A stretch of DNA of 64,000 nucleotides from Sediminibacterium sp. (GTDB taxonomy: Bacteria; Bacteroidota; Bacteroidia; Chitinophagales; Chitinophagaceae): NCBI GenBank assembly GCA_965229255.1, contig CBDDIX010000005.1, forward strand, positions 26,975 through 90,974, written 5' to 3'. Each line of letters starts with the position of its first letter. Within the stretch, counting starts at the first letter, position 1. Shown piece by piece: positions 930 to 59,408 of this stretch. The notes under the pieces are model-generated. The model was not told the origin of the DNA. It worked only from the letters and a program-made list of their open reading frames with translations, and made no database searches. Position numbers and translations under genes: made by a program.

Positions 930-3266
930 ATGTCGAAAAACACCGATTTACGCAAAGAACAGGCACTTGAATACCATTCCAGCGGAAGACCCGGTAAAAT
1001 AGAAGTGGTTCCTACCAAAGAAGCGAAAACACAACGCGATCTTTCACTCGCGTATAGTCCCGGTGTGGCCGAACCCTGCAAAGAGATTGCAAAAAATCCT
1101 GAAGATGTTTATAAATATACTGCCAAAGGAAACCTTGTTGCCGTGATCACCAATGGTACTGCGGTGTTAGGGTTAGGTGATATCGGTCCCGAAGCCAGTA
1201 AGCCTGTCATGGAAGGGAAGGGTGTACTCTTCAAAATATTTGCTGATATAGATGTATTCGATATCGAGATAAATGAGAAGGATCCTGAAAAATTTGTACA
1301 GATTGTCAAGTCGCTCGAACCCACTTTCGGTGGTATCAATCTTGAAGACATCAAAGCACCTGAATGTTTTTATATTGAACAGCAGTTGCGCGAGCAGATG
1401 AATATTCCTGTGATGCATGATGACCAGCATGGCACGGCCATCATCAGCAGTGCGGCGTTATTAAATGCACTCGAGCTCCAGAAAAAGAAGATCGAAAAAG
1501 TTTGTTTTGTTGTTAATGGCGCCGGTGCAGCAGCAATGGCCTGCGTACAATTATATGTGGCGCTGGGCGCAAAGCATGAAAATTTTATATTGTTTGATAA
1601 GGATGGTGTATTGCATAAAGGAAGAACAGATCTTGGTGAGATAAGAGAGCGTTTTGCTGTTAAGAAAAGCGATCTGACATTGGAGAAAGCGATGAAGGAT
1701 GCAGATGTATTTCTTGGCTTGAGTGTAGGAAACGTGATCACACAGGCGATGGTAAAAAGTATGGCGAAGAACCCCATCGTTTTTGCGATGGCCAATCCCG
1801 ACCCGGAGATCAGTTATGAAGATGCGATCGCTGTGCGCAAAGATCTTATCATGGCTACCGGAAGAACAGATTATCCTAACCAGGTAAACAATGTACTGGG
1901 CTTCCCCTATATATTCAGGGGTGCGCTGGATGTTAGGGCAAAGCAGATTAATGAAGCCATGAAACTGGCTGCTGTAAAAGCTTTGGCTGGTCTCGCAAAA
2001 TCTTCTGTTCCTGATATTGTGAACATGGCATATAACCAGAGTAATATGTCATTCGGTCCTGAATATATTATCCCCAAACCATTGGATCCCCGCTTACTTT
2101 CAACAGTGGCGCCGGCTGTGGCAAAAGCAGCAGTGGAAAGTGGCGTGGCACAAAAAACAATTGCTAACTGGGACGCGTATGCGTTAGAACTGAATAAACG
2201 ACTCGGTCTTGATAACCAATTAATCCGGGCGATAGGTAATAAAGCCCGCCGCGACCCTAAGCGTTTAATATTTGCAGAAGCGGATAATCTTAAGATCTTA
2301 AAAGCAGCCAGTATTATTTATGATGATGGTATCGCTTACCCGATCCTGTTGGGTGACCCTGTTAAGATTAACCGTATTGCAGAAGAGAATAATATTGATA
2401 TCATGGATCTTCCGATCATCGACCCAACGAGTGATGAGATGGAATCGAAACGTGAGTTCTATGGAGAACTGTTCTTCAAGAAAAGACAGCGCAGGGGCGT
2501 TAACCGGTATGAGAGCCGCAAGATGATGAACGACCGGAACCATTTCGGTTGTATGATGGTTGAAACCGGCGATGCGGATGCGATGTTATCCGGTCTCACA
2601 AAGAATTATGCAGAAGCGATCCGTCCAGCTTTACAGATCATTGGGACAGAAGAAGGTGTAAAGAAGATCGCGGGTATGTACCTGCTGCTTACCAAAAAGG
2701 GACCTTTGTTCCTCGCAGATACTACGGTCAATTTTCATCCTACGGCAGAAGAGCTGGCAGATATTACATTGATGGTGGCGAAAGAGGTAAGAAATTTTAA
2801 CCTTACCCCACGTATCGCCATGCTCAGTTACAGCAATTTTGGCAGTAGCGATTCGCCGGAAGCAAAACTGGTAGCAGAAGCCACGCGTATCCTTAAGCAA
2901 AAGAATCCATCGCTGATTGTTGACGGGGAAATGCAGGCCAGTATGGCATTTAATAAAGAGATCCTCCGCGATAACTATCCTTTCAGCGAGCTTGTGGATA
3001 AGGATGTAAACGTATTAATGTTTCCCAATTTAAGTGCGGGTAACGTAACTTACAATCTATTAAAGGAAGTAGGTGGTGCAGATGCGATCGGGCCAATATT
3101 GTTAGGATTAAAAAGACCTGTTCACGTACTGCAACTCGGAAGCACATCAAGGAGTATTATCAATATGGCGCTCGTTGCCGTGGTGGATGCGCAGATGAAA
3201 TGCAGAACCAATACAGATGAAGCGGTGCAGAAGAGCTCATGGTGGAAAAGGAAGAAAAGTAAATAG
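930..3266 (+). CDS. maeB: NADP-dependent malic enzyme with C-terminal phosphotransacetylase-like domain
   Basis: 778 aa. Motifs [39 protein letters not shown] and MANPDPEI, followed by a PTA-like domain (DGEMQ, FPNL.AGN, IGPILLG). Confidence 0.95.
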
Positions 3267-3304
3267 ACCCCTGCCCCCTGTTAGGGGGTTCAAAAAACAT
3301 AACT

Positions 3305-4042
3305 ATGTCGTTTTTTACACATTTAGGCAGTTATCTTCTCATGTTAAAAGGCATGTTTACCAAACCGGAGAACTGGCGGATGTATTGGAAAGAGTTCATG
3401 CATCAGTGTGCTGAAATCGGGATTGGTGCATTACCGATCGTGGTGATCATTTCATTGTTCCTGGGTGCGGTAACTACTGTACAGACTGCTTACCAGTTAG
3501 TGAGTCCGTTAGTGCCTGCATCTACCATTGCGCAGATCGTGCGGGATAGCATGATCCTTGAGTTATCGCCTACTGTATTAAGTGTTGTGTTAGCCGGTGT
3601 GATCGGAAGTAAGATCGCCAGTGAGCTGGGTAATATGCGCATCAGTGAACAGGTAGATGCATTGGAGATCATGGGTATCAATACAAAAAGTTATTTAGTA
3701 ATGCCCAAGATATTGGCATCGCTGGTGGTGATACCTTTTCTTATTATTATCTCTGCGGTGTTGGGTATATGGGGTGGCAGAACAGCAGGCGCAATGGCAG
3801 GCATTTTAGCTACAGATATTTTTGATGTGGGTCTCAGGCAGAATCTTAATATCTACAATATCAATATCGCGTTATACAAATCCTACACATTCGCATTCAT
3901 CATTAGTAGTGTATCAGCTTATTATGGATACAATGTAAAAGGTGGTGCATTGGAGATCGGTCGTGCGAGTACAAGTGCGGTTGTAGTGAGTTGTATTCTT
4001 ATTCTTGTGGCGGATTATGGATTGGCAGCTTTATTATTGTAA
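3305..4042 (+). CDS. mlaE: MlaE-family ABC transporter permease
   Basis: Hydrophobic 245 aa protein with ELSP...GVIGSKIASELGNMRISEQVDALEIMG and STSAVV motifs. Confidence 0.9.
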   Translation: MSFFTHLGSYLLMLKGMFTKPENWRMYWKEFMHQCAEIGIGALPIVVIISLFLGAVTTVQTAYQLVSPLVPASTIAQIVRDSMILELSPTVLSVVLAGVIGSKIASELGNMRISEQVDALEIMGINTKSYLVMPKILASLVVIPFLIIISAVLGIWGGRTAGAMAGILATDIFDVGLRQNLNIYNINIALYKSYTFAFIISSVSAYYGYNVKGGALEIGRASTSAVVVSCILILVADYGLAALLL

Positions 4043-4069
4043 GACACTGCTGATCGGGAACACTGACAT

Positions 4070-4157
4070 TTCACCGCAGAGGCGCAGAGCACGCAGAGTT
4101 TTCGCAGAGAAACTTGTCTCTGCGAAAACTCCCCGATCTCCGCGCCTCTGCGGTGAA
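4070..4157. repeat. REP-like nested palindromic element with four CGCAGAG units
   Basis: Outer perfect 16-bp IR: TTCACCGCAGAGGCGC (4070-4085) / GCGCCTCTGCGGTGAA (4142-4157). Inner perfect 15-bp IR: GAGTTTTCGCAGAGA (4096-4110) / TCTCTGCGAAAACTC (4117-4131). CGCAGAG occurs at 4075, 4083, 4092 and 4103. The element is GC-rich and intergenic. Confidence 0.85.
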
Positions 4158-4178
4158 GAAAAAACTCAAATGTAAAGG

Positions 4179-4667
4179 ATGAACCCAAGCTTTAACAAAT
4201 TCCGAAAGCAGATCGTAAATCCGATCAAGTTCCGTTTGTTCATGCTGCAAAAATTGCCATCAACTTTTTTTGCGGGATTAAAGATCAATGAACTGGATGA
4301 AAAACATGCGGTTGTTTCAGTAAAACATAAATGGTTCAACCAAAATCCTTTCCGTTCTATGTACTTTGCCATTCAATCCATGGCAGCTGAAATGAGTACA
4401 GGCATTCTTGGGTTTGGGCAGATCTATCAACGCGATCCCAAAGTGAGTATGCTGGTTGTTGGCATTGAAGCAAAATTCCTTAAAAAAATTACCGGTGTTA
4501 TTTCATTTACCTGTTCAGACGGAGAAGCAATCAATACAGCGATTGAACATTCTATTGCCACAGGGGAAGGAGTGACCGTTGTTTGCAGGTCGGCAGGCAC
4601 CAATGAAGAAGGAGAACTGGCAGCTGAATTTTTTGTTACCTGGAGTTTTAAAGCCAGGCAAAAATAA
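4179..4667 (+). CDS. DUF4442 / PaaI-like hotdog-fold thioesterase
   Basis: 162 aa. The pattern NQNPFRSMYFAIQSMAAEMSTG followed by EAKFLKK...G.I.F is typical of hotdog-fold DUF4442 proteins. Confidence 0.75.
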   Translation: MNPSFNKFRKQIVNPIKFRLFMLQKLPSTFFAGLKINELDEKHAVVSVKHKWFNQNPFRSMYFAIQSMAAEMSTGILGFGQIYQRDPKVSMLVVGIEAKFLKKITGVISFTCSDGEAINTAIEHSIATGEGVTVVCRSAGTNEEGELAAEFFVTWSFKARQK

Positions 4668-4674
4668 TGATCCA

Positions 4675-6075
4675 ATGAAAATAGCATTTCACGGCGCGGC
4701 ACGCGTAGTTACCGGTTCCAAGCATTTAGTTACTTTGAACAATGGAAAGAAGATCCTGCTCGATTGTGGTCTTTTCCAGGGGATGGGTAAAGACACCGAA
4801 GTGCTGAACAGTAGTTTTGGATTTGATGCGGCTTCTATCGATTGCCTGGTTCTTTCCCATGCGCATATTGATCATTGCGGACTCATACCCAAATTAGTAA
4901 GAGAAGGGTTCAAAGGAAATATATATGCTACGCCGGCTACACAGGCGTTGGCAGCGATACTGCTCGAAGATTCTGCAGAGATACAGCGGGATGATACAAA
5001 ATTCATCAACAAAAAAAGAGCCAGAACAGGTCTTCCGCCTTACCAGCCATTATATGTACCGGAAGATGTTGCCAACTCGCTCCCGTTATTTAAGCGTGTT
5101 GAATACGATCAGTGGACAACAATAGAACCGGGTGTAGAGGTACTTTTTACTGATGCGGGTCATATTATTGGTAGTGCGGCCGTACACCTTCGCATTACAG
5201 AAGATAATAAAACAATGCAGTTATCATTCAGTGGTGATGTTGGTCGCTACAACGATGCGATCCTCCGTGCCCCGTCAACTTTTCCACAGGCAGATTATAT
5301 ACTATTGGAAAGCACTTACGGTAATAAACTGCATGCAGATGTATTAGGTTCTGTTGATACCTTATTACAATGGGTAACCAGGACATGCATTGAAAAGAAA
5401 GGAAAACTTATCATACCTTCTTTTAGTGTGGGACGTACGCAGGAGCTATTGTATATGCTGAACCAGCTGGAGCTTGAAAACAGGTTGCCACAGGTACCTG
5501 TGTATGTAGACAGCCCTTTAAGCCGCGAAGCCACTGATCTTTTAAAAATGTTCCCGCAATATTTTAATGCACACATCAAGGAGGTGATGAAGTCGGATAA
5601 AGACCCTTTTGATTTTAAAGGGTTGAATTTTATCAAGACGGTAGATGAAAGCAAACGTCTCAACGAATTGCCGCAACCCTGTGTGATCATTTCTGCCAGC
5701 GGCATGGCAGATGCGGGAAGAGTAAAGCACCATATTATGAATAATATCGGTGATCAGAAAAACACGATACTGATGGTGGGTTATTGCGAGCCGCGTTCCT
5801 TGGGTGGAAGATTAATGAATGGTGCAAAAGAAGTAAAGATCTTTGGTGATATGTTTAAAGTGGTAGCGGAAGTGGGATCAATGCGCAGCATGAGTGCACA
5901 TGGCGATTATGATGATCTCTGCGAATTCATATCGGGGCTGGATACTTCAAAGTTGAAAAAAATATTTCTTGTACATGGTGAGTACGATGTTCAACAGGAA
6001 TTTGCAGACAGGTTAAGAAAGAAAGGGTATAAAGATGTAGTGATACCGGAACTCCACTCGGAAGAAAATTTATAA
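4675..6075 (+). CDS. MBL-fold metallo-hydrolase with beta-CASP/RNA-specificity domain (putative ribonuclease)
   Basis: Begins MKIAFHGAARVVTGSKH (ATG at 4675; the track start at 4579 overlaps the upstream gene). Motifs LDCG, SHAHIDHCG, AGHIIGS, FSGDVG, ESTYG, GRTQE, SAHGD and VHGE. Confidence 0.9.
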   Translation: MKIAFHGAARVVTGSKHLVTLNNGKKILLDCGLFQGMGKDTEVLNSSFGFDAASIDCLVLSHAHIDHCGLIPKLVREGFKGNIYATPATQALAAILLEDSAEIQRDDTKFINKKRARTGLPPYQPLYVPEDVANSLPLFKRVEYDQWTTIEPGVEVLFTDAGHIIGSAAVHLRITEDNKTMQLSFSGDVGRYNDAILRAPSTFPQADYILLESTYGNKLHADVLGSVDTLLQWVTRTCIEKKGKLIIPSFSVGRTQELLYMLNQLELENRLPQVPVYVDSPLSREATDLLKMFPQYFNAHIKEVMKSDKDPFDFKGLNFIKTVDESKRLNELPQPCVIISASGMADAGRVKHHIMNNIGDQKNTILMVGYCEPRSLGGRLMNGAKEVKIFGDMFKVVAEVGSMRSMSAHGDYDDLCEFISGLDTSKLKKIFLVHGEYDVQQEFADRLRKKGYKDVVIPELHSEENL

Positions 6076-6093
6076 AAGATTGAAAAGATAGCA

Positions 6094-7251
6094 ATGCCAG
6101 AAACGATCATTACACAGATTAAGCATGTATTTCATCAACATTTTGGAGAGCCTGATCTCATCGTCCGTTCACCGGGAAGAATTAACCTGATAGGCGAGCA
6201 CACGGATTATAACCTTGGTTTTGTTTTACCCGCTGCTATTAATAAAGCTATTTATATAGCCATACAAAAAAGAGAGGACCAGGAGATCCATCTTGTAGCA
6301 GCAGATCTTGAAGAAACCTTTCAAACAACGGTTGATAATGTGATCTATAGCGATCTCCATTGGCCCAATTACATTTTGGGTGTGGTGGATCAGTTACAAA
6401 AAGCAGGGCATCCCATAAAAGGGTTTAGTGCTGTGGTAACAGGGGATGTGCCTTTGGGCGCCGGCTTATCATCTTCTGCTGCTGTGGAATGTGCCGTAGC
6501 TTATGCATTGAATACATTGTTTGAACTGGGTATTTCTACAAAGGATATGGTCCTGATATCCCAGAAAGCGGAAAATGATTTTGTTGGGTTACAATGTGGT
6601 GTCATGGATCAGTTTGCCAGTATGTTTGGTAAAAAAGATCATGTGATCCGCCTCGATTGCCGTTCACTGGAGTATGCTTATATGCCTTTTGATACAAAAG
6701 ATGTACAGGTCATATTAATGGATACGGGGGTAAAACATTCACTCGCTTCAACAGCATATAATTTGCGGAGACAGGAATGTGAAGAAGGTGTTTGTACCAT
6801 ACAACGCAGATACCCGGCTGTTCAGAGCCTGCGGGATGCCACGATAGAAATGGTCAATGAATGTTTAACGGTAGATACGAATGTCTTTAAAAGATGTAAG
6901 TTTATTGTAGAAGAGATCCTGCGGTTGCAGGAGGGATGTGATGACCTTGTGCGGAATGATCTTCTCGCATTCGGTAAAAAGATGTTTGATACGCATCATG
7001 GACTCAGCCGGTTATATGAAGTAAGCTGCATAGAAGCAGATGCATTGGTAGAAGCAGTTATCAGCGATGAAGCTGTATTAGGCGCACGTATGATGGGTGG
7101 GGGGTTTGGCGGATGTACGATCAACCTGGTAAAAAAAGAAAAAGCAGATGAGGTGATCAACAGGGTCAGTTCTTTTTATTTTCACCGTTTTGCCATACCG
7201 CTTAAGACCTACCTGGTAAGTATAGAAGATGGAACCTCACTGGTAGAATGA
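6094..7251 (+). CDS. galK: Galactokinase
   Basis: GRINLIGEHTDYN signature, GHMP motif PLGAGLSSSAA, CGVMDQ, and GARMMGGGFGG. Confidence 0.95.
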   Translation: MPETIITQIKHVFHQHFGEPDLIVRSPGRINLIGEHTDYNLGFVLPAAINKAIYIAIQKREDQEIHLVAADLEETFQTTVDNVIYSDLHWPNYILGVVDQLQKAGHPIKGFSAVVTGDVPLGAGLSSSAAVECAVAYALNTLFELGISTKDMVLISQKAENDFVGLQCGVMDQFASMFGKKDHVIRLDCRSLEYAYMPFDTKDVQVILMDTGVKHSLASTAYNLRRQECEEGVCTIQRRYPAVQSLRDATIEMVNECLTVDTNVFKRCKFIVEEILRLQEGCDDLVRNDLLAFGKKMFDTHHGLSRLYEVSCIEADALVEAVISDEAVLGARMMGGGFGGCTINLVKKEKADEVINRVSSFYFHRFAIPLKTYLVSIEDGTSLVE

Positions 7252-7261
7252 AAACATAATT

Positions 7262-9040
7262 ATGCAGGAAGCGCAGTTAAATATATATACAAACAGGATT
7301 ATTGAATTCAATAAAGAGCAGGCAGCTATCCGTAAGCAGTTATCACTGATCAGTGTGTTGCGTCTCCTGTTATTCCTGGTATTTGCCGGGTTCCTTTACC
7401 AAGCATTTAAGGAAAGGTTTGCAGGTCATTCGCTTCTGTATTCGCTCCTTACGATCCCTGTTTTTATCGTACTTGTTTTATTGGCCGGCAGAAAGAAAGC
7501 AAAATTTAAATTTCTACAGCAATTGATCTTTATCAACCAGAATGAGATCGACATTACCCTTGGAAAAGATTCATTCCTCGACAACGGGCATGCCTATTCA
7601 CCGCAGAAAGGTTTTACAGTGGATCTCGGTCTTTTTGGAAAAGATTCTTTATTTCACCTGGTCAATCGTGTAGGTAGTTTGCCTGGCAGGGAGCAGCTGA
7701 CAGAAAGGCTCACTCATCCGTTTCTAGTCCCTGCAGATATCATTAATTACCAGGGTGCAGCAAAAGAACTATCAGGCAAACTTGTTTTCAGGCAAAACTT
7801 ATTGGCCCATGCTTTATTATTGGAAGAAGATGAAGCGCTTCCGCAATTACGAGCAGGCATTCTCATGGAACAATTTTCAACATTGGAGAGTGTAATATGG
7901 ACAGTAATTGCCAAAGTGTGGCCCATTGCCGGTATCATCATCAGTATATACTCAGTATGGGTAGATAGTTACCGCCTTTTACTTTTGTTTGGCGTGCTGG
8001 GTCTCTTATTGCTTTCTTTCACATTCCGGAAAGTATCACAGCTGTATAACCATATTTCGAAGCGCAGTTATTTGTATAATCAGTATGCAAAGTGTTTTAG
8101 TCTCATACTCAATGAAAAATTTGAGCATCCCTACCTGTTGAAAAAGCAGGAAGAAATAGGCGAAGCTGCGCTGGCATTTCAGCGGCTCTCCAAATTAACA
8201 GGCCTGTTCGATCTCCGTATGAGTTTGTTCTCGTTTGTGATCAATGGCTTATTTGTACTGGACCTTATTTGTGCACGTGCCTATGTTACGTGGAACAGGC
8301 AATACCAGCCACAGATCCCTAATTGGTTTGATACATTAGGTGAAATGGAGGTGCTCAATTCCCTGGCTACTTTTCATTATAATCACCCGGCCTTTATTTT
8401 TCCCGAAGCAATCACGGGGGCATTATCCATTGAGGCAAGCGGTATGGGGCATCCATTGATGAATGAAACCGCTGCTGTAACAAACGATATTTCTATCGGC
8501 AACCAGTCAAAGCTCCATATCATCACCGGCTCGAATATGTCAGGCAAAAGTACTTTCCTGCGCACATTGGGATTGAATATGGTCTTGGCACAAACAGGGG
8601 CACCGGTATTTGCGAATTCTTTTGTTTTCCGACCGGTAATTTTTTTGACATCCTTCCATCATATCGATTCACTTTCTGAAAGCACTTCTTATTTCTATGC
8701 AGAGTTACGTGCACTGCAAAGTATTATCCAGTCGCTGGATGAACCTACTCCTTCACTGGTATTGCTTGATGAGGTAATGCGGGGCACCAACTCAAAGGAT
8801 AAGCATGATGGAACCGCATTGCTCATCAAAAAGATACTAGGTTTCCAATGCCTCACATTGATTGCCACGCATGATACTGAATTAGGTATCTTAGCAGATG
8901 CGCATCCCGGCGAAGTAGCCAACTTTTGTTTTGAAAGTGAGTTATCTTCCGAAGGGTTGACATTTGATTTCAAAAAACGAAAGGGTGTGGCCCAATCAAC
9001 CAATGCAACCTATCTAATGAAGCAAATGGGCATCATTTAA
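7262..9040 (+). CDS. Membrane-anchored MutS-related ATPase (MutS domain V only)
   Basis: N-terminal TM segments. Walker A GSNMSGKSTFLR, SYFYAEL, Walker B LLDEVMRGTNS, ATHD. No mismatch-binding domain is visible. Confidence 0.85.
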   Translation: MQEAQLNIYTNRIIEFNKEQAAIRKQLSLISVLRLLLFLVFAGFLYQAFKERFAGHSLLYSLLTIPVFIVLVLLAGRKKAKFKFLQQLIFINQNEIDITLGKDSFLDNGHAYSPQKGFTVDLGLFGKDSLFHLVNRVGSLPGREQLTERLTHPFLVPADIINYQGAAKELSGKLVFRQNLLAHALLLEEDEALPQLRAGILMEQFSTLESVIWTVIAKVWPIAGIIISIYSVWVDSYRLLLLFGVLGLLLLSFTFRKVSQLYNHISKRSYLYNQYAKCFSLILNEKFEHPYLLKKQEEIGEAALAFQRLSKLTGLFDLRMSLFSFVINGLFVLDLICARAYVTWNRQYQPQIPNWFDTLGEMEVLNSLATFHYNHPAFIFPEAITGALSIEASGMGHPLMNETAAVTNDISIGNQSKLHIITGSNMSGKSTFLRTLGLNMVLAQTGAPVFANSFVFRPVIFLTSFHHIDSLSESTSYFYAELRALQSIIQSLDEPTPSLVLLDEVMRGTNSKDKHDGTALLIKKILGFQCLTLIATHDTELGILADAHPGEVANFCFESELSSEGLTFDFKKRKGVAQSTNATYLMKQMGII

Positions 9041-54174: not shown

Positions 54175-54825
54175 TTAATTTGTAAGCGTAACCTGACCGA
54201 TATAGGCAGTGGATGAGACACCAGTTTGATTCTCCGATACCAACAGTAACCAGCAGTGTACTGATTGGTTGGGAAAAACAGATACATCTACGGTTGCCAT
54301 TTCATCGCCGCGGGTGGCAATATCCTGGTAATAAATAAACTGCTTCTCTGCTTCGCAAAACACAACCACCGTGAGCTTGTCGGAGTTAAGGGCTCTTCCT
54401 ACACCGGGGTTCTTTGTCCATATGAACGTGATCTGCTGGTTGGCTTCAGCGGCTGCTAAAACGCTTCCTACATTCGGCATACTGCTATTGCCGCTGCTGA
54501 ACTGCAATTGGGTGATATCGATACTGAAAGGCGAAGTATCGCCTGCAATGGCCAGGCGGATGTTATGGGCCACCGCCGCATTAAGCCCCGATACAGAATT
54601 TGAGTAGCGTTTGAATGTAGTGCGGAACAGCTGAGAAAGACCTGCTAACAGGGTTACAATCCGTGTGAATTTTTCACGCTGGTCTGCCTGGGCAGGGCTA
54701 GGCTTTCTATTCTTTTTGATTGCAGGAAGCGAGCGCATAACCTGTTTGCCTTTCCAGGTACTGCCAATAACCCCTCCCGTTTTTCCTGCGAATCCTCCAA
54801 GGATCCCGTTGTTAAGAACTGACAT
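54175..54825 (-). CDS. DUF6266-family protein (unknown function)
   Basis: Characteristic N-terminus GILGGFAGKTGGVIGSTWKGKQVMRSLP...PSPAQADQREKF and a beta-rich C-terminus. Confidence 0.8.
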   Translation of the reverse strand: MSVLNNGILGGFAGKTGGVIGSTWKGKQVMRSLPAIKKNRKPSPAQADQREKFTRIVTLLAGLSQLFRTTFKRYSNSVSGLNAAVAHNIRLAIAGDTSPFSIDITQLQFSSGNSSMPNVGSVLAAAEANQQITFIWTKNPGVGRALNSDKLTVVVFCEAEKQFIYYQDIATRGDEMATVDVSVFPNQSVHCWLLLVSENQTGVSSTAYIGQVTLTN

Positions 54826-54931: not shown

Positions 54932-55136
54932 GGGGGTTGCAGGGGTTGCACAACCCCCGGTAACTGCTTGATAACCAGTCAGATGTTACAAAAAAAATGT
55001 TTGGATCAGGGAGCCGTTTTTAAACATTTTTTTTATTTAAAGATGTTGGTAATTGATTTATAAATGTTTATATATGGTGATAAATAAGAAAAATCACCTA
55101 GTTGCAACCCCCAGTAACTGATTGATAATAAGTTAC
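54932..55136. repeat. Origin-like repeat block: two 24-bp direct repeats, GGGGTTGCA units, AT-rich IR core
   Basis: CAACCCCCGGTAACTGCTTGATAA (54951-54974) vs CAACCCCCAGTAACTGATTGATAA (55105-55128), 22/24 identical. GGGGTTGCA occurs in tandem at 54933 and 54942. Perfect 13-bp IR at 54990-55002 / 55022-55034. Confidence 0.75.
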
Positions 55137-55251
55137 TTGTTCCAAAAAAAATGCTTGAATTTTCCTCTTTTATGCGTCATATGATTTTGGGTGCATCTGG
55201 CTCCTTTTTTCGCTCTTTCTTCGCTTCACAGCCTGTATTTCTTCTTATCAA

Positions 55252-55397
55252 AGCCTTATCAGCCTCGTTCATGGACGAAGAATGTTCTAGTGTGGACGAA
55301 GGATGTTCGTCCGTGGACGAAGAACGTTCGAGTGTGAGCGAAGAATGTTCGTCTGTGAATGAAGGGAGGAAGGAGGAATGATGGAGCTGATAAGGCT
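55252..55397. repeat. 21-bp tandem array (about 5 units) bracketed by a perfect 12-bp inverted repeat
   Basis: Units start at 55265, 55286, 55307, 55328 and 55349 (consensus TCGnnnGTGGACGAAGAATGT). IR AGCCTTATCAGC (55252-55263) / GCTGATAAGGCT (55386-55397). Confidence 0.85.
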
Positions 55398-55429
55398 GTG
55401 ATATGGGGGTGGTAGGGAGCGCGAAGAAA

Positions 55430-56386
55430 TTACAATCGATGTAATTGCGAATGAAGTCTTTCAAGCAACTCCTCAAAGGGCGGTTGCCCATTATAATACA
55501 AGGCAGACGTTGCTTCATAACGCACCTTAAATTGTTCCTTTAATGTAGAATCACTCAGTAAAAATGCTTGGTTTTCCTGGATAGGAATGTCTAGGTCTTT
55601 TTTAAACTTTACAATCTTGTATTCCTCATATTCTTTTGTGCCGATAAACGTCAATACTCTTTCAATATTGAGGAGTGAGTAAACATCATAGTATTGACGC
55701 ATCAAATTCGGCTTCTCACCTTTTTTCTCAACTTGCTCCTGTCTAAACATCCTGGCAATTGTCTGCAGTTTTTCTACAAAAGTGTACCCGGGATCATAGC
55801 ATGCGATATCGATAGCTCTATTGTCTACTATTTGAATCGAATCAATAGATATAGCTTTTTCGTAAGCCCATGAACTAATCGTTTTTCTTTCAAAAGGAGT
55901 CACCTTGTCAAAACCGGCTTCCAGCAGGATTCCATCTTTAATACCAGTAACCGTGTCAAACAGACTATTGTAATGAAGGCGTATGCCCCCACTAAAATAA
56001 TACCTGGTATCATCAAAAGAGGTATCCCTGGCTAAGGAAATAATTCCATCGATCTTAATGTTGTTTACCAGGAAATCATAAAACTCATTTCTGCCCTTGA
56101 TTTGGTTTTCTTTTAGTTTGTTGCGCTCCTCTGCAACCCCCATTGCAGGTGGAGGCGTTATATGAATATCAATATCCTCCGAAAAACGATGGATGATCCC
56201 ATAGCCTTTCGACAGGGATGTACCTCCTTTCAATTCAAAGGCGTAGCCACCTTTTGTAAGGCCGTATAATACATGCATGATCCAATAGTCCTTCTCAACC
56301 AATACCGGCAGAATATTTTTTTCCTCAGCCACAATCTGCAGCAGTGCTTTGAATTCCGGGTGTTCATGAAGATATGCAGCAGGCAT
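55430..56386 (-). CDS. AbiEii/AbiGii nucleotidyltransferase toxin (type IV TA)
   Basis: LVEKDYW, FELKGGTSL, HRFSEDIDI, TFVEKL and RQYYDVY. ATG 56386 is preferred over TTG 56419. Confidence 0.9.
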   Translation of the reverse strand: MPAAYLHEHPEFKALLQIVAEEKNILPVLVEKDYWIMHVLYGLTKGGYAFELKGGTSLSKGYGIIHRFSEDIDIHITPPPAMGVAEERNKLKENQIKGRNEFYDFLVNNIKIDGIISLARDTSFDDTRYYFSGGIRLHYNSLFDTVTGIKDGILLEAGFDKVTPFERKTISSWAYEKAISIDSIQIVDNRAIDIACYDPGYTFVEKLQTIARMFRQEQVEKKGEKPNLMRQYYDVYSLLNIERVLTFIGTKEYEEYKIVKFKKDLDIPIQENQAFLLSDSTLKEQFKVRYEATSALYYNGQPPFEELLERLHSQLHRL

Positions 56387-56402
56387 TGTTGCTAATTGTG
56401 TT

Positions 56403-56972
56403 TTATAAGTATTGGGCAAATAATTTCCTGGCTTTTACACCACCGTATTCTGAAACCGCATGTGCCAGCTTCTTCCTATTCATAGACATCGCCTTGGCAG
56501 GAAGGTTATTCAACACCAGGCTTTTATCTTCAGCCAGTGAGTTCAGGTTATTCACCATATCCACTATCAAAAATTCCGGCGACACCTTTTTCGGAAAATG
56601 AGGCTTTATCCTGAAATTGAATGTCCGGTTCCCAAGTTTGAATTCGCCATGGCGTTTATGGTTGTAAACAACACGGCTATTATACAGCTGGGTAGTGCCA
56701 AGCCCCAGGCTGTTATAGGAATTCGGGGAGGTGAGTAGGAACCTGTCATCTTTCAGGAAACTGCGTACCAATGCCTCATCTTCTGGCGGTGCCGCCCCGA
56801 AAGCCGTCATTCTTGGATAATAGTACACCCCCTGGGAAAGTTTCTGCAAAGTGCCTTCCTGCACAAGCTCTTCCAGGTGCCGGTCAACAGAAGTGGACCA
56901 TTGCGTAAGATCTTCCCGGCGATACACATTACCCTGTTTCAGGTGTTTTTTTAGTTTATCCAGTTTCGACAT
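56403..56972 (-). CDS. AbiEi-like antitoxin (wHTH N-domain)
   Basis: VDRHLEELVQEGTLQKLSQGVYYYP wHTH, NSLGLGTTQ; directly upstream of the AbiEii gene. Confidence 0.8.
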   Translation of the reverse strand: MSKLDKLKKHLKQGNVYRREDLTQWSTSVDRHLEELVQEGTLQKLSQGVYYYPRMTAFGAAPPEDEALVRSFLKDDRFLLTSPNSYNSLGLGTTQLYNSRVVYNHKRHGEFKLGNRTFNFRIKPHFPKKVSPEFLIVDMVNNLNSLAEDKSLVLNNLPAKAMSMNRKKLAHAVSEYGGVKARKLFAQYL

Positions 56973-57207: not shown

Positions 57208-58275
57208 CTAATGTTCTTCTGAATAGCCTAACAACTCCGTCTGTATTATTCGTAATCGCTCTTTGATATTTGCAACATCATTCGTGCCATGTTGAGTTAG
57301 CCTATCGTATTCTAGCAAATCATAATCTGCATTTTCATAAGATGTTTCCGCAATAGTTCTATTGGTTTTAACTTTTTCTGTAAAAGCCAATAACGATGAT
57401 CTTGAAATACTATGACCACCTTTGGATGCATTTTTAAAAAGTAGATAGAAAACCACAATATTACCCTGTGCTCTAAGAAGATTGTCTGCAAGCACAAAAC
57501 AACGATCCATGGTATTCAGAACGGATTTTACAATTGTGCTTACATTATTAACTACAGTAATGTTTCCCGTTTTATATTTTTTAGCCATTGAATCCAGGTA
57601 CACTTTTTTTGTATCAATAAGTTTACCATATTCTATTTTCGAAATTTCAACTAATAGAAGTCGAGCGGCAACCTCGTAATGTTGATATCTATTATTCGCA
57701 AATTTCACTTTAGTAAAAAAAGAATGATTAGAAAGTTTTCGAATCTCGCTAACCATATCCCCACCAAATGCATTTCTTTTTTCAGCAGAATTTAACGGAG
57801 CAGCTTCATTCAATCGAGAAAACATATCCTCAATCAAATCCAAATCGTCAGTTTGGACACCAACAATCGGCAAAACAAACGAATCAAATTTGATCTTAAT
57901 TTTCGGATATTCCTTCGATAAATCGTCATAGCTTAATCCGCAAAGTTTCAAATGAGGATCATCTTGATACTCGAAATCATCTGAAAGACAAAACTTGCCA
58001 TCAACGAATGCCCATATGGTTTCTAGTCGTTGTTTGCCGTCAATAATTGCGTAAGACTTTCCTGTCTTTTGTTTTTCTATTCTATCAAACTGATGAAAAT
58101 ATATTTTTGGAATGTCATAGTTATTTAAAATAGAATCAATAAGCAACTGTTTTTTTTCGGGTGTCCAAATTCCTCCGTTACGCTGATATTCAGGATCAAC
58201 AATAATTTCATCCTTTTCAGAGTAAACTCTGAGAATTGTAGCATGTTGAACGGGGTTGGTTTCTATATAACTCAT
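57208..58275 (-). CDS. DUF262 (ParB/GmrS-like) domain protein, no HNH domain apparent
   Basis: PEYQRNGGIW...LLIDSILNNYDIPKIYF, IIDGKQRLETI and MFSRLNEAAPLNSAEKRNA. Confidence 0.88.
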   Translation of the reverse strand: MSYIETNPVQHATILRVYSEKDEIIVDPEYQRNGGIWTPEKKQLLIDSILNNYDIPKIYFHQFDRIEKQKTGKSYAIIDGKQRLETIWAFVDGKFCLSDDFEYQDDPHLKLCGLSYDDLSKEYPKIKIKFDSFVLPIVGVQTDDLDLIEDMFSRLNEAAPLNSAEKRNAFGGDMVSEIRKLSNHSFFTKVKFANNRYQHYEVAARLLLVEISKIEYGKLIDTKKVYLDSMAKKYKTGNITVVNNVSTIVKSVLNTMDRCFVLADNLLRAQGNIVVFYLLFKNASKGGHSISRSSLLAFTEKVKTNRTIAETSYENADYDLLEYDRLTQHGTNDVANIKERLRIIQTELLGYSEEH

Positions 58276-59006
58276 TTGTAATGTCCTTTTAGTATTTCGC
58301 CTATGCTTGATAATTCCGGGAACAATGTGAACTTACTGATCCCTAATAACTTTAATTCTTTTCTTATCTCTTCTTTACAATTTTGGGGGATAAGATATTT
58401 TACAACTTCATTTGAATTGCAAAAATCTTCAATAGGTCTAACATCTAAATGATGTATCGTGAAAACTCCTAATTGAGCTTGTATTCTTGAATTATTTCTA
58501 GTGGCAATGGTAGCTAAAGGTGTTAATTTATTTCTTGGATTTTGGTTTAACACTTCAACTGAATAGCTTTTAAGCTCCAGATCATCAAAACAAAGGATGA
58601 AATTCTTTTCACCAACACTAATGCCGGCAATTTTATTTAGCTCAGTTGGTTTTAACGACCACAATGCCGCATCATTTGCTTCAGTTGCCACATCTGATAC
58701 TGCAAAATAGAGGGCAGTTAAAGGGCTTTCCGTCCAATCCAATAACCTAGTAGGTACCCCATAATGTTGCATAAGAAACATCCAGTCGAAATCATCTTTA
58801 GGGTGTCTATCTAACAGCATTCCAGCAGATTGCTTAAATCGAGTCAAAAAACTCCCCTCTGATGGTCCTCCGGTTGTGCGTAAGAGCCCAGGTGATAAGG
58901 TCCAAGTAAATTCTCCCTGCCCTCTATACCAAATATCACCATCGTATGCAGAATTATCCGTCTTCAATATTTCAATTAAATCACTAACGCTTTTTATTTC
59001 TTTCAT
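58272..59006 (-). CDS. FRG-domain protein
   Basis: IWYRGQG...LSPGLLR, MQHYGVPTRLLDWTESPLTALYFA and NSRIQAQLGVFTIH. ATGA overlap with the DUF262 gene. Confidence 0.92.
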   Translation of the reverse strand: MKEIKSVSDLIEILKTDNSAYDGDIWYRGQGEFTWTLSPGLLRTTGGPSEGSFLTRFKQSAGMLLDRHPKDDFDWMFLMQHYGVPTRLLDWTESPLTALYFAVSDVATEANDAALWSLKPTELNKIAGISVGEKNFILCFDDLELKSYSVEVLNQNPRNKLTPLATIATRNNSRIQAQLGVFTIHHLDVRPIEDFCNSNEVVKYLIPQNCKEEIRKELKLLGISKFTLFPELSSIGEILKGHYK

Positions 59007-59120
59007 GATAGCTGTGACAAAGATTGTCTTTTAATGAAGGGGGAGGGAGCTAAGATATAAATATATAATAAGAAACACGAATGTGGGATCGATCTGCACA
59101 ATAATCAAGGAGATAAAGCA

Positions 59121-59153
59121 GAAATAAAACAACCCTTGCGGAGCAAGGGTTGT
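59121..59153 (-). terminator. Intrinsic terminator of tRNA-Glu
   Basis: Minus strand ACAACCCTTGC-TCC-GCAAGGGTTGT (11-bp perfect stem), followed by TTTATTTC. Confidence 0.85.
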
Positions 59154-59155
59154 AG

Positions 59156-59227
59156 TAGCCGGTACGGGAATCGAACCCGTCTTTGCCCCGTGAAAGGGGG
59201 CTGTCCTAACCGATAGACGAACCGGCC
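59156..59227 (-). tRNA. tRNA-Glu (anticodon TTC), CCA not encoded
   Basis: 72-nt cloverleaf: acceptor GGCCGGT/ACCGGCT, anticodon arm GCCCC-CTTTCAC-GGGGC, T arm ACGGG-TTCGATT-CCCGT. Confidence 0.97.
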
Positions 59228-59322: not shown

Positions 59323-59362
59323 GACCATAGTCAATAGACCATGGTCCATGGACTATGGTCTA
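59323..59362. repeat. Palindromic heptamer repeat (GACCATA/GTCCATG family)
   Basis: gaccata-gtcaata-gaccatg-gtccatg-gactatg-gtctatc. The 10-mers GACCATAGTC, GACCATGGTC and GACTATGGTC sit at 59323, 59337 and 59351; the outer pair is an exact IR. Confidence 0.8.
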
Positions 59363-59408
59363 TCAACTGCCATTCAAAAAATATCACTACTATTCTTCCC
59401 AATCATCG

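Follow-up and report, generated by a model that had tools for sequence, protein, structure and literature searches.

In a 64,000-nt stretch of Sediminibacterium sp. DNA (assembly GCA_965229255.1, contig CBDDIX010000005.1, positions 26,975 to 90,974 of the forward strand; referred to below as the window), an FRG-domain gene is followed by a stand-alone DUF262 gene (Table 1). The two genes constitute an obligate, translationally coupled and co-evolving unit of fixed order and strand, which was recovered as such from more than 150 sampled bacterial, archaeal and prophage loci. The pair is interpreted as an anti-phage or anti-mobile-element module composed of a sensor nucleoside triphosphatase (NTPase) and a toxic effector (probability about 0.5). 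This interpretation is based on the obligate pairing, the coupling and co-evolution of the two genes, their mobility and defence context, the matches of the individual components and the published literature.

Pairing and mobility of the two genes

Relatives of the FRG protein were collected by scanning one genome per species (about 185,000 species genomes). At least 589 species were found to encode a relative of the window FRG clade, and the FRG-based counts given below refer to the best 80 of the loci from these species, with hidden Markov models built from our own alignments. At these 80 loci, the FRG proteins are 36-72% identical to that of the window. Their hosts comprise Bacteroidota, Alpha-, Beta- and Gammaproteobacteria, Campylobacterota, Desulfobacterota (Smithella), Spirochaetia, Nitrospirota, Planctomycetota, Chloroflexota, Actinomycetota, Acidobacteriota, Omnitrophota and Verrucomicrobiota as well as two archaea (Nitrosopumilus and a Ca. 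Ainarchaeum). Loci from cultured isolates include L012 (Pseudomonas fluorescens), L024 (Xanthomonas) and L029 (Acinetobacter), while L011 stems from an uncultured Vibrio MAG. A DUF262 gene is located directly downstream on the same strand in 77 of these 80 loci, corresponding to 77/77 that could be evaluated; the three exceptions are truncated FRG matches without DUF262, two of which extend up to the edge of the retrieved locus. Conversely, FRG is found directly upstream of DUF262 in 77 of 80 metagenome loci retrieved with the DUF262 protein (77/78 evaluable). Two of the remaining loci are contigs too short to tell, whereas in the third (L137, positions 1268-2776) the DUF262 gene is intact and the FRG gene upstream of it has been replaced by a gene for an IS21-type transposase. 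In L052, a locus found through FRG, FRG is truncated and DUF262 is absent.

The junction between the two genes was determined in 77 loci. The reading frames overlap in 63 of them (by 4 nt in 49 and by 1 nt in 14 cases), while the other 14 junctions consist of 13 gaps of 0-9 nt and one case scored as a 32-nt overlap. In the window, the ATGA overlap and the coordinates of both minus-strand open reading frames (ORFs), as given in an earlier note on this DNA that was made from the sequence alone, were confirmed, and the translationally coupled unit proposed there is borne out by the two-way co-occurrence and the overlapping junctions. Pairwise identities of the FRG proteins and of their DUF262 partners are closely correlated (r=0.87; 2,701 pairwise comparisons from 74 loci), with DUF262 being slightly more conserved than FRG. 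Across the 77 loci, no third recurrent operon gene was detected, including any ATPase partner; only restriction-modification (R-M) genes recur, in variable positions. These data refute the notion that an FRG gene of the PADLOC candidate class PDC-S15 and an orphan gene related to nsnA are adjacent by chance and act independently. PADLOC treats FRG as a single-gene candidate, and other FRG clades reside on plasmids and phages without a DUF262 neighbour; given the co-occurrence in both directions, the conserved order and overlap and the correlated divergence, the probability of chance adjacency is nevertheless practically nil.

The pair travels between genomes as a cassette whose composition is foreign to its hosts. 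In the window, its GC content is 34.7%, compared to 42.2% for the whole window, and 400-nt windows give values of 0.32-0.35 within the pair and of 0.39-0.51 in the flanks. The AT-rich character described in the earlier note is thus real, whereas the contrast is smaller than stated there, and no flank reached the quoted figure of about 60% GC at this scale. In 68 of 71 loci, the GC content of the pair lies below that of its flanks, with a mean difference of 10 points. Nucleotide similarity between the window and the other loci ends at the borders of the FRG and DUF262 genes, so that the transferable unit is essentially the two genes. A close relative carries the pair in an unrelated neighbourhood without AbiE. 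On a megaplasmid of Ralstonia solanacearum (L087, positions 999-6751), the pair is located between two IS5-family transposase genes, and it is also present on five viral contigs of IMG/VR. One of these is a P2-like prophage (UViG_3300031415_000156; L094, positions 4599-8798) with the gene order GPA replication gene, CI repressor, FRG, DUF262, integrase and HNH, in which the CI repressor, FRG, DUF262 and integrase genes all lie on one strand. The pair has a GC content of 0.34 in this prophage, as opposed to 0.41-0.55 for the phage genes, and its FRG protein, which is extended by about 30 aa at the N-terminus, is preceded by a good ribosome-binding site 11 nt past the CI stop codon. Judged by this arrangement, the pair occupies the position of a putative moron expressed from the lysogenic operon. 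The INPHARED phage collection contained only distant relatives of FRG or DUF262 and never the FRG/DUF262 pair.

A mobile pair of this kind could also be a selfish addiction cassette, with FRG as a toxin and DUF262 as its neutraliser, whose loss kills the cell and which stabilises mobile elements without a dedicated anti-phage role. Such a role would suit a compact, coupled two-gene cassette that has a foreign composition in 68 of 71 genomes, stands amid housekeeping genes and occurs between insertion sequence copies, on a megaplasmid and in prophages; in addition, L137, the one decayed locus with an intact DUF262 gene, has lost FRG. Many toxin-antitoxin modules also defend, and the addiction and defence roles are not exclusive. 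Taken as the sole function, addiction is considered unlikely, because the decay of L052 went in the opposite direction, the enzyme-like 355-aa DUF262 protein with its invariant NTP-binding motifs is unlike a labile antitoxin, and NsnA and PD-T4-2_A, to which it is most closely related, are components of validated defence systems (PMC10952713).

The FRG and DUF262 proteins

The FRG protein was identified by Pfam family FRG (PF08867; E=7e-25, 88 bits versus a cut-off of 25) and matched 14 PADLOC models of PDC-S15, the best of them (PDLC04938, E=4.6e-53) over its full length. The motifs quoted in the earlier note are all present, with WYRGQ at residues 26-30, LDWTESPLTALYFAV at residues 89-103 and QAQLGVFTI at residues 176-184. 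In an alignment of 74 diverse homologues, the residues kept in at least 95% of the sequences include W26, R28, G29, R43, E50, Q59, H81, T86, R87, L88, L89, D90, W91, E93, N124, R170, Q178, F182, T183 and P230. The Y27-R28-G29 motif accordingly contributes R28 and G29 to this set. In several public assemblies (L081, L083 and L084), the start of FRG has been miscalled at the internal Met63, yielding a protein of 182 aa. In the window, this start would exclude positions 58821-59006 and remove 62 residues, including the conserved W26, R28 and G29 of the YRG region. The 244-aa ORF is the real one, because the homologues align from residue 1. The protein annotated in these assemblies is 62 residues short and lacks the conserved YRG motif, and defence-annotation tools call only half of the unit, as the single-gene candidate PDC-S15.

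The fold of FRG was modelled with AlphaFold2 (AF2) at a mean predicted local distance difference test (pLDDT) score of 70. A Foldseek search of the Protein Data Bank (PDB) with this model returned the RES-type NAD+ phosphorylase toxin MbcT as a weak top match (E=0.018, template modelling (TM) score about 0.3), and the ADP-ribosyltransferase (ART) toxin domain of RhsP2 at rank 3. DarT structures were absent from the top 50 matches. At the sequence level, comparison of a 200-sequence FRG profile with an 88-sequence RES/MbcT profile in hhalign gave a probability of 0.1%; the MbcT query used for the RES profile had been checked against 6fkg. Pfam searches with 50 FRG homologues at E<=10 detected no second family (no RES, DarT or ART), sequence-profile searches of the PDB with the FRG and DUF262 proteins yielded nothing significant, and NCBIfam contains no model for either protein. 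The Aravind group has assigned Frg to the ART superfamily, with a predicted antiviral function as an NADase or signal generator (PMC9503650), and the placement of Frg among ART domains has been echoed since (bioRxiv 10.1101/2024.07.30.605764).

The FRG superfamily is very large, comprising 19,179 representatives (clusters at 50% identity, E<=0.001), of which 177 are as close to the window protein as E<=1e-30. More distant clades were sampled on two plasmids and one temperate phage; their members are longer or lie next to other genes, and DUF262 is absent. Escherichia phage Tritos (L088, positions 3437-4771) and a Citrobacter plasmid (L086, positions 3491-4819) encode homologues that have additional N-terminal sequence and reach about 445 aa. 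The FRG gene of Tritos is a solitary gene in the vicinity of hokD and the CI/Cro immunity region, and the others are carried on enterobacterial plasmids, all without a DUF262 partner. These longer homologues are probably self-contained, single-gene FRG variants.

The DUF262 protein matched Pfam family GmrSD_N/DUF262 (PF03235; E=7e-19) at residues 19-170 only. Among the PADLOC models, it was recognised by NsnA of the Menshen system (E=1.1e-30, profile positions 46-376 of 385) and by PD-T4-2_A (E=1.8e-17), in both cases over the full length. Its AF2 model (pLDDT 84) places an alpha/beta domain at the N-terminus, ahead of an entirely helical region (residues 163-349), and Foldseek identified BrxU (7p9k; E=3.9e-4) as the best match, followed by SspE (6jiv) and CTP-bound ParB. 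The motifs Q31-R32-x4-W37, D79-G80-x-Q82-R83 and F152-x3-N156 are each conserved in 95% or more of the 74 diverse homologues; the second of them reads DGKQR in the window protein (residues 79-83), as the earlier note had stated. A match to DUF1524/HNH was found by Pfam in neither the FRG nor the DUF262 protein. Based on these matches and on the model, the protein is predicted to be composed of a ParB/Srx-like NTPase domain and a helical ParBDB-like domain without a nuclease domain. This assignment agrees with the earlier proposal of a nucleotide-binding DUF262 domain with no visible HNH motif: the three NTP-binding motifs are invariant and no nuclease domain was found. A ParB-DUF262 plus ParBDB architecture has been proposed to act as the DNA sensor of Menshen (PMC12065111), and in SspE, GmrSD and BrxU the DUF262 NTPase gates a nuclease through NTP binding or hydrolysis (PMC10952713, PMC12065111).

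The roles of the two proteins might be reversed: FRG would sense infection or produce a signal derived from NAD+, and the effector would be the ParB-like domain of DUF262, for example as a nuclease or as a replication-blocking DNA clamp. Frg is listed by the Aravind group among the signal-generating ART domains (PMC9503650), and ParB-like domains have been treated as DNases in R-M contexts (PMC3710099). Every DUF262 system studied, however, employs DUF262 as an NTPase sensor and has its nuclease in a separate domain or protein (PMC10952713, PMC12065111). Neither Pfam nor Foldseek revealed a nuclease domain in the DUF262 protein, and the ADP-ribose-binding sensor domains Macro, SLOG and TPR-S were not detected in it by Pfam search. 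An exchange of roles is therefore regarded as very unlikely.

Proposed mechanism and relation to known systems

In the scheme that we infer for DNA sensing, the interaction of FRG with DUF262, NAD+ chemistry and phage protection, the DUF262 protein would bind invading or modified DNA, whereupon an NTP-dependent conformational switch in DUF262 would release or activate FRG. The latter step is modelled on the gating of the DUF1524 nuclease by DUF262 in GmrSD, BrxU and SspE. FRG would then act on NAD+, either depleting it as an NADase or phosphorylase or using it for the ADP-ribosylation of a macromolecule, and either activity would halt the replication of the phage or lead to the death of the infected cell. 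DUF262 may, in addition, keep FRG inactive before infection. This possibility fits the coupled gene order, as translational coupling with FRG as the first gene would mean that FRG is never made without DUF262. In its broadest form, the proposal describes a widespread, unnamed immune system of Bacteria, Archaea and prophages in which an ART-fold enzyme is under the direct control of a ParB-like DNA sensor that depends on NTP; it is put forward tentatively, at somewhat short of even odds.

Some points weigh against the interpretation of the pair as a sensor-effector defence module. The gene order, with the putative toxin first, and the large DUF262 protein are unlike classical type II toxin-antitoxin modules, so that the notion of DUF262 restraining FRG is purely conjectural. 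Moreover, the flanks consist mostly of housekeeping genes (first 25 fully flanked loci, 3 genes on each side), which means that the pair is not a typical resident of defence islands. A defence or mobile-element context is suggested by AbiE in the window, by 5-methylcytosine (m5C) R-M genes in 19 of 77 loci and by the lysogeny operon of the prophage.

The m5C R-M genes were identified by clustering all flanking ORFs. A C5-cytosine DNA methyltransferase gene is located within 3 kb of the pair in 19 of 77 loci (including L012, L024, L029, L034, L043 and loci in the range L056-L079), accompanied by an Eco29kI-family GIY-YIG endonuclease in 11 and by Vsr in 10 of the 77. These genes are found on either side of the pair and in either orientation. 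They accompany it most often in the more divergent FRG clade (about 15 of 24 loci), and the association may reflect simple co-residence in islands or a functional link to the sensing of cytosine modification by DUF262.

The recurrence of the pair beside cassettes of m5C methyltransferase, endonuclease and Vsr would also fit a DNA-directed activity, comparable to DarT or to type IV restriction. In this case, the DUF262-ParBDB protein would recruit FRG to phage or modified DNA, where FRG would ADP-ribosylate the DNA or a DNA-bound protein and thereby block replication instead of depleting NAD+. The ART-fold protein DarT ADP-ribosylates single-stranded DNA in phage defence, a precedent that is counted in favour of this alternative together with the rank-3 match of the FRG model to RhsP2, which ADP-ribosylates RNA. 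Likewise, the partner is a ParB-like, putatively DNA-binding protein whose relatives sense modified DNA (PMC10952713, PMC12065111). On the other hand, no DarT structure was among the top 50 Foldseek matches, the published prediction for FRG is that of an NADase or signal generator (PMC9503650), and transferase and hydrolase are not separable by sequence alone. DNA-directed ADP-ribosylation is therefore viewed as doubtful.

For the proposed sensor-effector module, the closest architectural precedent is PD-T4-2, which is reportedly due to Vassallo et al. in 2022. Both systems consist of two genes, encoding a stand-alone DUF262 protein without a DUF1524 nuclease and a separate effector, which is toxic in PD-T4-2 and predicted to be so here (PMC10952713, PMC12065111), and the window DUF262 protein matches PD-T4-2_A over its full length. 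The effector is swapped, with a HEPN RNase in PD-T4-2 and FRG here; FRG matches no PD-T4-2_B or HEPN model. With Menshen (NsnA-NsnB-NsnC), the pair shares the ParB-DUF262 plus helical ParBDB-like architecture, the DUF262 protein being closest to NsnA (PMC12065111), whereas an adjacent NsnB (ABC-ATPase/DUF3696) or NsnC (inPIN-nuclease) is missing and the upstream FRG is the sole operon partner. GmrSD, BrxU and SspE have the DUF262 NTPase domain with its conserved DGxQR pocket in common with the window protein, and BrxU and SspE are its best fold matches. These systems, however, combine the domain with a C-terminal DUF1524 His-Me nuclease in a single chain of 560-770 aa, while the window protein ends at 355 aa and neither it nor the neighbouring FRG and AbiEi proteins contain such a nuclease. 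The FRG gene, in turn, matches the models of PDC-S15, which is a single-gene computational candidate, whereas FRG of the window clade never occurs without DUF262 in evaluable loci. Finally, MbcT of the MbcT-MbcA system is the weak top Foldseek match of FRG, and FRG and RES have both been listed among the ART-superfamily clades of prokaryotic immunity (PMC9503650). The two differ in that there is no sequence-profile similarity (hhalign 0.1%) and the TM score is only about 0.3, and in that the partner is a ParB-like NTPase rather than an Xre/MbcA-type antitoxin.

PADLOC-DB v2 contains no model for the FRG/DUF262 pair as a unit. A mention of FRG together with DUF262 or ParB was not found in the literature searched; the Aravind-group papers introducing Frg lay outside that search and may mention the neighbourhood. 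The first discussions of Frg are said to be those of Burroughs and Aravind in 2020 (J Bacteriol) and of a 2015 NAR paper. The earlier statement that no named system has this composition consequently applies to the exact pair in PADLOC-DB v2 and the searched literature, but its parts are known from PDC-S15, NsnA and PD-T4-2_A. We infer that the pair is an uncharacterised variant among the systems that combine a DUF262 sensor with a swappable effector; it is not wholly undescribed, and its mechanism is deduced from these relatives.

FRG proteins are already suspected of serving as immune effectors that target NAD+, and the window clade offers the simplest genetic handle on the family, since its minimal protein of 244 aa is always accompanied by a single partner of a well-understood kind. 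Should the pair confer phage protection, an ART-fold effector would be added to the modules gated by DUF262/ParB-like NTPases, which so far comprise HNH-like nucleases, HEPN proteins and the combination of an ABC-ATPase with a nuclease. It would show how NTP-dependent DNA sensing reaches a separate protein, and the detection of foreign or modified DNA would be coupled to the loss of NAD+ or to ADP-ribosylation, a wiring new to experiment. It would also provide the first assigned biochemical activity for the FRG family with its 19,179 clusters.

Locus layout and neighbouring elements

The features of the locus are listed in Table 1. The genes and elements around the DUF262 gene are FRG, AbiEi, AbiEii, DUF6266, tRNA-Glu, gap and pgk. 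As described in the earlier note, the pair is located on the 3' side of tRNA-Glu and adjoins an AbiE system. Its distance from the tRNA gene is 148 nt, and both AbiE genes were recognised by PADLOC.

Table 1. Features of the FRG/DUF262 locus (window positions).
Feature	Position	Strand	Remarks
FRG-domain gene	58272..59006	minus	244 aa, ATG start; first operon gene; predicted ART-superfamily effector
Stand-alone DUF262 gene	57208..58275	minus	355 aa, ATG start; predicted DNA sensor and switch
ATGA stop/start overlap, 4 nt	58272..58275	minus	DUF262 ATG over FRG TGA; read in sequence
Upstream non-coding region, expected site of the operon promoter	59007..59128	minus	between hairpin and FRG start codon
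Terminator-like hairpin	59129..59153	minus	11 bp stem, T-rich tail; directly after tRNA-Glu
tRNA-Glu (anticodon UUC)	59155..59227	minus	ARAGORN; context only
AbiEi antitoxin/regulator gene	56403..56972	minus	PADLOC AbiEi E=1.1e-91; Pfam DUF6088, AbiEi_3_N
AbiEii nucleotidyltransferase toxin gene	55430..56419	minus	PADLOC AbiEii E=7.8e-66; Pfam AbiEii E=6e-27
DUF6266 gene	54175..54825		Pfam E=3e-30

The hairpin between tRNA-Glu and the pair implies that the pair should have a separate promoter of its own, and the putative operon promoter should reside in the upstream non-coding region. One weak sigma-70-like match was found at 59034-59005, in a scan that does not cover Bacteroidota promoters. 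RNA-seq runs labelled with the same organism yielded zero reads for the locus, gap and pgk included. AbiEi and AbiEii are encoded on one strand with a 17-nt overlap, as in an AbiE regulator/toxin operon, and represent a neighbouring, separate system.

In the homologous loci, a tRNA gene was found within 1.5 kb in 5 of 80 cases, and tRNA adjacency was therefore rejected as a general feature. In the window, a search for att-like direct repeats of the tRNA 3' end as possible island borders gave no convincing candidate, and a search for a relative with an empty site, conducted with the identical GAPDH protein, matched only the same contig. NUDIX-domain genes, which could bear on ADP-ribose metabolism, occurred three times among 150 flanking genes (L001-L028), slightly above a rough expectation.

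The DUF6266 gene, which lies between the AbiE pair and a gene for an M13 peptidase, marks the far boundary of the low-GC stretch. Between AbiEii and the DUF6266 gene, a 21-nt unit is repeated in tandem about five times (55265-55369); the repeats are bracketed by an 18-nt inverted repeat (55246-55263 and 55386-55403) and crossed by two antisense ORFs with repetitive SSVDE-like peptides. Two 56-nt direct repeats (54951-55006 and 55105-55160; 82% identical, 154 nt apart) are situated in the same AT-rich intergenic stretch and could be remnants of an insertion boundary or a small repeated element. Between tRNA-Glu and the divergent gap gene, a near-perfect palindrome of 19+19 nt (59323-59368; GACCATAGTCAATAGACCA / TGGTCCATGGACTATGGTC) was observed, which may serve as an operator or terminator.

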